DNA of 64,000 nucleotides, taken from the IMG/VR virus record IMGVR_UViG_3300045988_177309, positions 96,170 to 160,169 of that record; one strand, written 5' to 3'. A program made the translations under genes and the position numbers. The notes beneath the pieces are model-generated. The model was given only the letters and a program-made list of their open reading frames with translations. It searched no databases and was not told where the DNA came from. Origin of the DNA: a virus. Shown piece by piece: positions 53,070-54,008 of the stretch. Numbering within the stretch: position 1 is the first letter of the stretch; every line of letters starts with the position of its first letter.

Positions 53070-53930
53070 TTAGTGAACGCTAATCTTACGAACGCCGACT
53101 ATCATAATTGCGGCGAATATGGCCACAAGCGCAATGCTCAGGACAGACATATCACCAGTCTGAGGCAGACCAGGTGAAGGCACGGGCGCAGGAATTACTG
53201 TACCATTCCAAGTAATAACCTTAGTTACAGTCTTATAATCGCAAAAATTCCTTACAAGATGCTCATTGCTCATGTAAATCTGACGAGCCTTTACTGCATC
53301 CATGGTAATACCAAGCTCAACAAGACCTGCAGTAGCCTTGTCCCACTCTTCCTTACTCATAGTAGAAGTAATCGGTGTACCATTATAAGACACTTCAGTT
53401 ACAACATTCAGCTCATCACGCACAAAAGTATAATCGCCAAGAGTAACTTCCTTAGCGTCCTCGGATGCCACAACATTCTTACCCTTATAGAAACACTGCA
53501 TTACATTATTACCAGACTTAATGGTAACAGATACGGTAGGATTATTGCCGGTTACACGAGCTGAAAATACGGGAAGCATAACACCACCAAGATCATCAGT
53601 AGTAACAGCGCCGTCAGCCTTTATATTGGCAAGGTCTGTAAGTACATAATCCTCAGCAGTAAAGGCGTTAATCATAGCATTAACGGCATTTTTACCCATA
53701 GCATAGCCAGTAAAATAAACTATATCACCAATCTTAGCAGTGGCATCAGGCACAACCTTAAAAGCCTCGCCCATTACACCAACAACTCGCTCAAGCTTAT
53801 AAAGATTTATATTATAAGTTTCACAAGAAGTATCATTATCCTCCAGCTTGCCCCAACCAGTAGCAAACGCAACAGAGGTACAACCAAGAATCATAATTAC
53901 GCAAAGAATTGCGCTAAAGATTTTCTTCAT
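53070..53930 (-). CDS. LPXTG cell-wall-anchored surface protein (signal peptide + LPQTG + TM + RK tail)
   Basis: N-terminus MKKIFSAILCVIMILGCTSVAFA. C-terminus GLPQTGDMSVLSIALVAIFAAIMIVGVRK. GC clearly higher than the surroundings. Confidence 0.8.
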   Translation of the reverse strand: MKKIFSAILCVIMILGCTSVAFATGWGKLEDNDTSCETYNINLYKLERVVGVMGEAFKVVPDATAKIGDIVYFTGYAMGKNAVNAMINAFTAEDYVLTDLANIKADGAVTTDDLGGVMLPVFSARVTGNNPTVSVTIKSGNNVMQCFYKGKNVVASEDAKEVTLGDYTFVRDELNVVTEVSYNGTPITSTMSKEEWDKATAGLVELGITMDAVKARQIYMSNEHLVRNFCDYKTVTKVITWNGTVIPAPVPSPGLPQTGDMSVLSIALVAIFAAIMIVGVRKISVH

Positions 53931-53978
53931 GTTAATTTTAAAAATCCTTTCAAAAATAAAATTTTATTTTATATAAAT

Positions 53979-54008
53979 ATATTACTAAATTATTACAAAA
54001 ATGTCAAA
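53979..54008 (-). promoter_or_regulatory. promoter TTGACA-18-TAATAT upstream of the LPXTG gene
   Basis: Minus strand reads TTGACATTTTTGTAATAATTTAGTAATAT. Confidence 0.45.

Follow-up and report, generated by a model that had tools for sequence, protein, structure and literature searches.

What does the phage gene at positions 53070..53930 of this stretch encode, and what would the phage use it for? The gene lies on the minus strand of 64,000 nucleotides of viral DNA (positions 96,170 to 160,169 of IMG/VR record IMGVR_UViG_3300045988_177309), to which we refer as the window. A preliminary description had read it as a GC-rich moron, probably acquired from a Gram-positive host, encoding an LPXTG-type sortase substrate. 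The question has a wider bearing: when phage genes alter the surface of a bacterium, they influence which phage can infect which cell, and how gut bacteria stick to mucus, to their host and to each other. We found that the 286-amino-acid product is probably a protein of the cell surface, which a Gram-positive host would produce and anchor on behalf of the phage. Furthermore, it defines a small unannotated family of predicted sortase-anchored proteins, found both in gut Clostridia and in phages or phage-like contigs of at least six types.

Predicted export and cell-wall sorting signals

The open reading frame (ORF) runs from an ATG start to a TAA stop codon without an in-frame TAG and shares the minus strand with nearly all other window ORFs of at least 100 amino acids; all of its features given below are on that strand. 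Residues 1-23 (53862..53930) form a predicted signal peptide, with signal peptidase I expected to cut after A-F-A. The N-terminus reads MKKIFSAILCVIMILGCTSVAFA up to the predicted cut and TGW after it, and comprises MKK, which supplies two lysines, then about 13 residues of hydrophobic core and lastly an A-x-A site; we read these as all three parts of a Sec signal peptide. Furthermore, a bacterial signal peptide of the STII type, found on recombinant Fab chains in the PDB, matches the first 25 positions of the family profile described below. Among the window ORFs of at least 100 amino acids, this is the sole example of a signal-peptide-like start.

At the C-terminus, the putative sortase recognition pentapeptide LPQTG (residues 255-259 of 286; 53154..53168) is followed by DMSVLSIALVAIFAAIMIVGV, a hydrophobic segment of 21 residues, and then by the positively charged RKISVH. 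This stop-transfer segment (D260-V280), the RKISVH tail and the stop codon occupy 53070..53153, and 20 of 22 residues in the C-terminal segment are hydrophobic or small. No other ORF of the 64-kb window has such a sorting-signal tail. Between the two signals lies the predicted mature ectodomain (residues 24-254; 53169..53861), in which codons 88-250 are the divergent, allele-like part. Collectively, these features predict that the product is exported by Sec and bears a complete cell-wall sorting signal of the LPXTG type, and the four elements named in the preliminary description (signal peptide, LPQTG, hydrophobic stop-transfer segment and RK tail) are all in place. A sortase-like ORF was not found in the window, either by a phmmer search with SrtA or by a scan for the TLxTC motif, which implies that a host enzyme would be used.

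A rare family carried by phages and Firmicutes

Next, we examined how widely the protein is distributed and which of its positions are kept. A profile of close relatives searched against 1.84 billion representative proteins returned just 49 clusters at E <= 0.001, and 37 of the 49 cluster representatives, with 20-45% identity to the query, make up the family alignment. Ten positions are invariant in the 37 members (M1, K2, A21, A23, W26, K45, A65, P256, T258 and G259), and both the A-x-A site and P-x-T-G are kept in all of them. Most members have IPKTG(D) as their sorting motif, and some have LPQTG. Neither the protein nor its relatives matched any Pfam or PHROG family, and an NCBIfam scan of the protein and the 37 relatives gave nothing beyond weak matches to LPXTG-anchor models, TIGR01167 being matched by 20 of the 37 at E <= 0.1 (best 0.0018).

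All three of the nearest relatives, with 43, 32 and 27% identity, come from phages. The first lies in a prophage beside bacterial ribosomal-protein genes, where tail genes are followed in turn by the family gene, a Peptidase_S8/SH3 gene and a serine recombinase. The second belongs to a siphovirus of about 40 kb (MT835524, 'Siphoviridae sp. ct91l7', in a cluster of 1205 sequences), where the family gene is placed between a tail fibre gene and an endolysin with NlpC/P60 and PG_binding domains. In two further small phages, one of which also has a holin and an integrase, the LPXTG gene is followed by NlpC/P60, and in a phage-like contig it is followed by Hydrolase_2. A cell-wall hydrolase or protease thus lies immediately downstream of the family gene in five other phages or phage-like contigs: NlpC/P60 in L001 (8001-8741), L140 (844-1599) and L141 (7877-8635), Hydrolase_2 in L007 (3225-4091), and Peptidase_S8 plus SH3 in L009 (10001-10834; L009/L010). 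Wherever tail genes are annotated (L001, L009/L010 and L141), the family gene is downstream of them. In the 151-kb phage L139, it is followed by RlaP.

Two members, L008 and L142, are chromosomal. L008 lies on a Clostridia-type chromosome with Spo0A, SipL and TrkAH, of which Spo0A and SipL are sporulation genes, and in a second plainly chromosomal context the neighbours of the family gene are Obg, YhbY and RlmL. No annotation exists for this rare family, which turns up repeatedly, in phages or phage-like contigs of at least six types; as these contexts show, gut Firmicutes, including at least one of the Clostridia, share it with several unrelated phages.

Other searches added little to this picture. 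Two further profile searches returned almost exclusively close relatives, a metagenome-contig scan keyed on the signal peptide returned one contig of the same phage from a metagenome-assembled genome (MAG), and scans of IMG/VR with profiles of the long and the short subfamily gave no match. Weak hidden Markov model (HMM) matches in L018 and L022 were rejected as unrelated secreted proteins that match in the signal peptide only.

The gene as a predicted transcription unit of its own

The preliminary description had given the gene its own TTGACA promoter and terminator, and both are confirmed as sequence features that are predicted to be active. The promoter-like site (53979..54007) consists of TTGACA, a 17-nt spacer and TAATAT, is of the sigma-70/sigma-A type and falls in the 90-nt gap after the upstream ORF of 81 amino acids. 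Loose promoter scans perform at chance level in this AT-rich window (117 sites for 105 +/- 9 expected). The strict pattern TTGACA-N17-TAWWAT, however, has five matches in the window for 0.28 +/- 0.51 expected, four of them on the coding strand, and the gene context is clear for three: a topoisomerase gene, a tRNA with the anticodon CTA and the 286-codon gene. As the strict pattern is far above expectation, the promoter of our gene is probably real and of the host sigma-A type; both of its hexamers are identical in five related genomes. Other strict matches, with the perfect form TTGACA-N17-TATAAT, are at 41785..41813, 18718..18746 and 10963..10991, all on the minus strand; one stands immediately in front of the suppressor tRNA, and a second precedes the gene for the large subunit of topoisomerase II. 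A Shine-Dalgarno-like AAAGGA (53945..53950), kept in relatives, precedes the start codon.

Downstream, a predicted intrinsic terminator (53023..53054) combines a 14-bp stem, a 4-nt loop and U7, with a folding free energy of -20.2 kcal/mol and a z-score of -6.9. The hairpin begins 16 nt past the stop codon, just outside the start of the region that had first been described, and can also be read as a terminator on the plus strand. Its stem is identical in five genomes, and both flanks of the gene are 96-97% identical in four related genomes. With a transcript expected to end at this strong terminator, the unit would be monocistronic. Straight after the terminator, and before a UPF0489-like gene of 240 codons, lies an extended -10-like element, TGGTATAAT (52980..53000, minus strand). 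It is kept in relatives, which suggests that transcription re-initiates there for the UPF0489-like gene.

A conserved gene with an allele-like ectodomain

We found 30 homologues with 74-97% identity, on contigs of up to about 175 kb. Four independent assemblies, one of them an IMG/VR viral genome, converge on 174.9-176.0 kb, which makes the element a phage of about 175 kb. In each of the 11 contigs recovered (the window, L002-L006, L011 and L143-L146), the gene occupies the same position. One of these contigs, L143 (ERZ1035037 NODE-2, 146,667 bp), is 96% identical to the window over 3 kb spanning the gene, and its very high coverage of 580 suggests that the phage was blooming in that sample.

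The ratio of non-synonymous to synonymous substitution rates (dN/dS) against two relatives is 0.17-0.19 for the gene and 0.02-0.14 for its neighbours. This indicates purifying selection on a functional gene. Furthermore, the dN of the gene is about 1.4-16 times that of the neighbours, and its nucleotide identity is the lowest within 13 kb; in L146, the neighbours are 90-95% identical and the 286-codon gene just 79%. The divergence is unevenly distributed along the gene, with a dS of 0.19-0.22 for codons 1-87 and of 0.45-0.96 for codons 88-250. By this measure the ectodomain behaves as an allele open to exchange, with conserved ends on either side, a pattern typical of exposed proteins that face diversifying pressure within populations. 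A diversity-generating retroelement was rejected for the window, which holds no template-repeat copy of the gene.

Across 107 related large-phage loci, in which synteny is not conserved, neither a family member nor any other ORF with a sorting signal was found within 6 kb of homologues of the neighbouring genes. The gene therefore appears accessory at the level of the clade, though fixed in its own lineage. We regard it as moron-like, with a predicted promoter-terminator unit of its own inside a phage genome and a probable accessory status in the wider clade.

A megablast search with 18 kb against isolated phages gave no match and thus no cultured relative. The MAG bins are labelled Clostridium sp. 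and Candidatus Onthovivens, and no Gram-negative context was seen among the family contexts. Together with the Spo0A/SipL neighbourhood, every taxonomic hint is Gram-positive, in agreement with the Gram-positive host first proposed. Use of the sortase pathway would itself place the host among sortase-bearing Firmicutes, and it is to sortase-bearing Bacillota that the sequences limit our inference of the host, in accordance with the MAG labels.

Base composition and origin

Next, we examined whether the gene stands out in composition. Its GC content is 41.6%, compared to 32.2% for the window (rank 2 of 57 ORFs, z = 2.07), so that the elevated GC noted at first is real; at third codon positions (GC3), however, the value of 0.338 ranks fifth (z = 1.55). 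Because the GC3 excess is modest, much of the GC excess is in codon positions 1 and 2, where the gene is close to the top of the distribution, and is attributed to amino-acid composition. Several core or housekeeping genes of the phage are as GC-rich, for example the Sak4-like gene with 40.4%. The gene is thus at the high GC end, yet it is no lone outlier. Homologues roughly follow the GC content of their surroundings, with 58% in backgrounds of 51-62%, 45% in backgrounds of 45-48% and 40% in a background of 36%. Collectively, the compositional signal is real but modest and alone is no proof of recent capture.

The suggestion that the gene came from a Gram-positive host is helped by the two chromosomal members, but the nearest relatives are phage-borne and the GC3 excess is small. 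Furthermore, the gene is fixed in the 11 contigs, between which dS reaches 0.63, and any capture from a host would therefore be old. On these sequence comparisons, acquisition from host to phage is plausible, though ancient.

Predicted structure and mode of action

An AlphaFold2 model built with a deep alignment reached a predicted local distance difference test score (pLDDT) of 82.8; a first model, built from close relatives only, was discarded (57.5). The retained model places an immunoglobulin-like (Ig-like) beta-sandwich at about residues 38-140 and a second domain, of beta/alpha type, at about 150-240; it also has a disordered linker with LPQTG and a C-terminal helix. Foldseek found nothing in the PDB at E <= 0.001, and matches to pentameric channels were set aside as shape artefacts of a beta-sandwich plus helix. 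In a library of viral structures, the sole significant matches were the ct91l7 homologue and another phage protein named 'LPXTG cell wall anchor'. The modelled beta-sandwiches weakly resemble adhesin and pilin domains of Gram-positive bacteria: matches to CnaA/CnaB-type and CLIPPER/DUF11-like domains (of CppA, BspA, SpaP, PrgB and RrgB) are below normal thresholds for homology. CLIPPER is a CnaA-like isopeptide domain (10.1101/2025.04.25.650565), and we rejected it here: there was no Pfam match, and K58, which aligns with the isopeptide Lys715 of 9ifr, is R, Q, S or V in other family members. The modelled fold fits a displayed surface protein and reveals no ligand.

From the established sortase pathway, the following course can be proposed. 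Host RNA polymerase would start at a consensus promoter of the sigma-A type, of which the region has few; with such a promoter, phage transcription factors should not be needed, and without an in-frame TAG the message should be translatable without the amber-suppressor tRNA of the phage. The precursor of 286 residues would be exported by Sec and cut by signal peptidase I after Ala23, while the C-terminal hydrophobic segment and the RK tail would retain it in the membrane. A host sortase of the housekeeping type would then cut LPQTG between Thr258 and Gly259 and join the protein to lipid II, and thence to peptidoglycan, so that a two-domain, Ig-like ectodomain of about 230 residues may be displayed on the infected (or lysogenic) cell.

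As for function, we prefer a remodelling of the cell surface to the benefit of the phage, by masking of a receptor or exclusion of other phages, which would also prevent progeny from attaching to infected cells or debris. Three features lead us to favour this reading: small phages link the family gene to tail fibre genes, the ectodomain is allelic, and the gene has strong expression signals of its own. Small phage-encoded, exported envelope proteins are known from T5 (Llp) and from Streptococcus thermophilus phage TP-J34 (Ltp); they are lipoproteins, held by a lipid anchor, that act at the surface in superinfection exclusion or receptor masking. A more specific version of our reading, which we put forward as a speculation and consider rather doubtful, makes the whole family a dedicated phage tool, the sortase-fixed and peptidoglycan-anchored counterpart of these receptor-masking lipoproteins. 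The Ig-like ectodomain would then co-evolve with the receptor-binding proteins and mask the receptor on infected cells and debris, which would explain the recurrent position between tail fibre and endolysin genes in small gut phages, the allele-like exchange of the ectodomain in the 175-kb phage and the strong host-type promoter.

Several observations weigh against surface anchoring or against the function that we prefer. The sorting motif predicted at the outset is present, but TIGR01167 (LPXTG_anchor) scores 13.7 bits over residues 255-279 (E = 0.075), below its cut-off of 15.9 bits; since the model is short (34 positions), we regard the cut-off as narrowly missed and do not conclude that the signal is absent. 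Because most members carry IPKTG and not LPQTG, the class of sortase is uncertain. The spacing of 14 nt between the Shine-Dalgarno-like element and the ATG is long. Furthermore, the gene is not adjacent to receptor-binding or lysis genes in the 175-kb phage, and the sequence data do not discriminate exclusion from adhesion or from a role related to lysis.

Adhesion is the main alternative and a serious rival, possible in our view though less probable than not. Under this hypothesis, the gene is a fitness gene of lysogenic conversion whose wall-anchored ectodomain binds mucus, host tissue or other bacteria, to the advantage of the carrier cell and thereby of the phage. The closest folds are Ig-like domains of adhesins and pilins, temperate phages that have integrases or recombinases bear related genes, and chromosomal paralogues occur in two Firmicutes contexts, one clearly Clostridia. 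There is also a precedent in SasX/SesI, an LPXTG surface protein of a staphylococcal phiSPbeta-type prophage that is reported to enhance colonisation (PMC7047976). The present protein, however, has no ligand-binding domain recognisable by Pfam or PHROGs, and its mature form is short (about 230 residues) and without stalk repeats. Furthermore, the 64-kb window showed no lysogeny genes and resembles the early or replication region of a large, possibly virulent phage.

The downstream hydrolases and proteases of the five other phages or phage-like contigs raise another explanation, namely that the protein is an accessory of lysis or of the late module, which interacts with the endolysin, times it or alters the wall at lysis. 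We consider this unlikely. The linkage alone is weak evidence because the junction of tail and lysis genes is a classical insertion site for cargo, the neighbours in the 175-kb phage are radical-SAM, DUF5662 and UPF0489-like genes and not lysis genes, and in L139 it is RlaP that follows.

Still less likely is that the protein is no sortase substrate in practice, being either a lipoprotein or a type I membrane protein held by its C-terminal helix. Residues 14-17 (I-L-G-C17) fit a loose lipobox, and the LPXTG_anchor score is under the cut-off. Cys17, however, recurs in only one distant aligned relative (P0056), while A21-x-A23 is invariant; with the lipobox cysteine not conserved in the family, the lipoprotein reading was rejected. 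The retention of P-x-T-G in 37 of 37 members at 20-45% identity would also be hard to explain unless the motif is used. A pilin-like subunit, polymerised into fibres by a sortase with Lys45 as nucleophile, is the least likely of all: K45 is among just ten invariant positions, but its context is K[YFL], sequence and alignment show neither a YPKN motif nor an E-box, no sortase gene lies beside the chromosomal members examined or in the window, and the fold similarity is generically Ig-like.

Other genes and features of the window

The window encodes a primase, DnaB, a ligase, topoisomerase II, RecJ, Sak4, homing endonucleases, an RNA ligase and nine tRNAs. One tRNA (41669..41743, minus strand) has the anticodon CTA, and reading through TAG extends about 25 ORFs. 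The gene for serine hydroxymethyltransferase (38056..39264, minus strand) has one in-frame TAG, yet residues 3-399 of its product align end to end with solved structures of this enzyme. The Cys-rich ORF of 81 amino acids upstream of our gene (54021..54266, minus strand) has a TAG at codon 7 that is kept in a relative, and the ORF at 51170..51796 (minus strand) is also among the TAG-related loci. The phage thus probably reads TAG as a sense codon, as judged from these sequences, and the pattern matches the stop-codon recoding published for gut phages (10.1101/2021.08.26.457843).

At least four radical-SAM paralogues are found on the minus strand (20789..22174, 22480..23805, 49822..51168 and 56987..58249). 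ORFs 48375..49856 and 55609..57006 are listed with them, the latter with 45% protein identity to the neighbouring ORF of 487 amino acids. Small ORFs are flanked by these paralogues, and the one at 51170..51796 is rich in Ser, His, Phe and Cys; together they could be a cluster for peptide modification. Also on the minus strand, a protein of 814 amino acids (30755..33199) matches the shoulder and repeat domains of the major vault protein, and a DUF2828/DUF7788 protein and an RNA ligase are encoded nearby (41810..43276 and 35312..36733), an unusual gene set for a phage. Two genes encode GIY-YIG homing endonucleases (15871..16743 and 8786..9577, minus strand), one of them between the genes for the topoisomerase II subunits (13223..15580 and 16940..18682).

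Comparison with known systems

Phage-borne LPXTG surface proteins are already known from SasX/SesI, the only type of precedent that we found in the literature on phage LPXTG morons or sortase-based exclusion, and as it stands the present gene is a tidy example of a known phenomenon and no surprise. The novelty is modest: what is new is an unannotated, rare family, its adjacency to lysis genes in small phages and its carriage by a large phage that probably recodes TAG in part.

Two uncharacterised gut-phage proteins are true homologues, the ct91l7 protein A0A8S5MXR0 and the product of the MT835524 ORF at 8001-8741, with 32% identity over 98% of the query and a Foldseek E of 3e-20. They share the signal peptide and LPQTG with our protein. 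They differ in their setting, a phage of about 40 kb (51% GC in the 16.7-kb stretch examined) with flanking tail fibre and NlpC/P60 endolysin genes, and in their length of 246-248 amino acids.

Like SasX/SesI, the product of our gene is an LPXTG surface protein carried as cargo on a large phage genome and, by prediction, displayed via the host sortase pathway. Unlike SasX, which is annotated and is reported to enhance colonisation, it belongs to an uncultivated gut phage; no annotated family was recovered for it, and the likeness to SasX is one of description.

With T5 Llp and TP-J34 Ltp it has in common that it is small, phage-encoded, predicted to be exported and attached to the envelope, where it could block re-infection or the loss of progeny; as with T5 llp, relatives of the gene are close to tail fibre genes in smaller phages. 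The two lipoproteins differ from it in being held by a lipid anchor, where covalent anchoring to peptidoglycan by a sortase is predicted for our protein, and no homology links them. If the exclusion or masking that we propose is true, the gene would provide a Gram-positive, wall-anchored version of a mechanism known mainly from lipoproteins.

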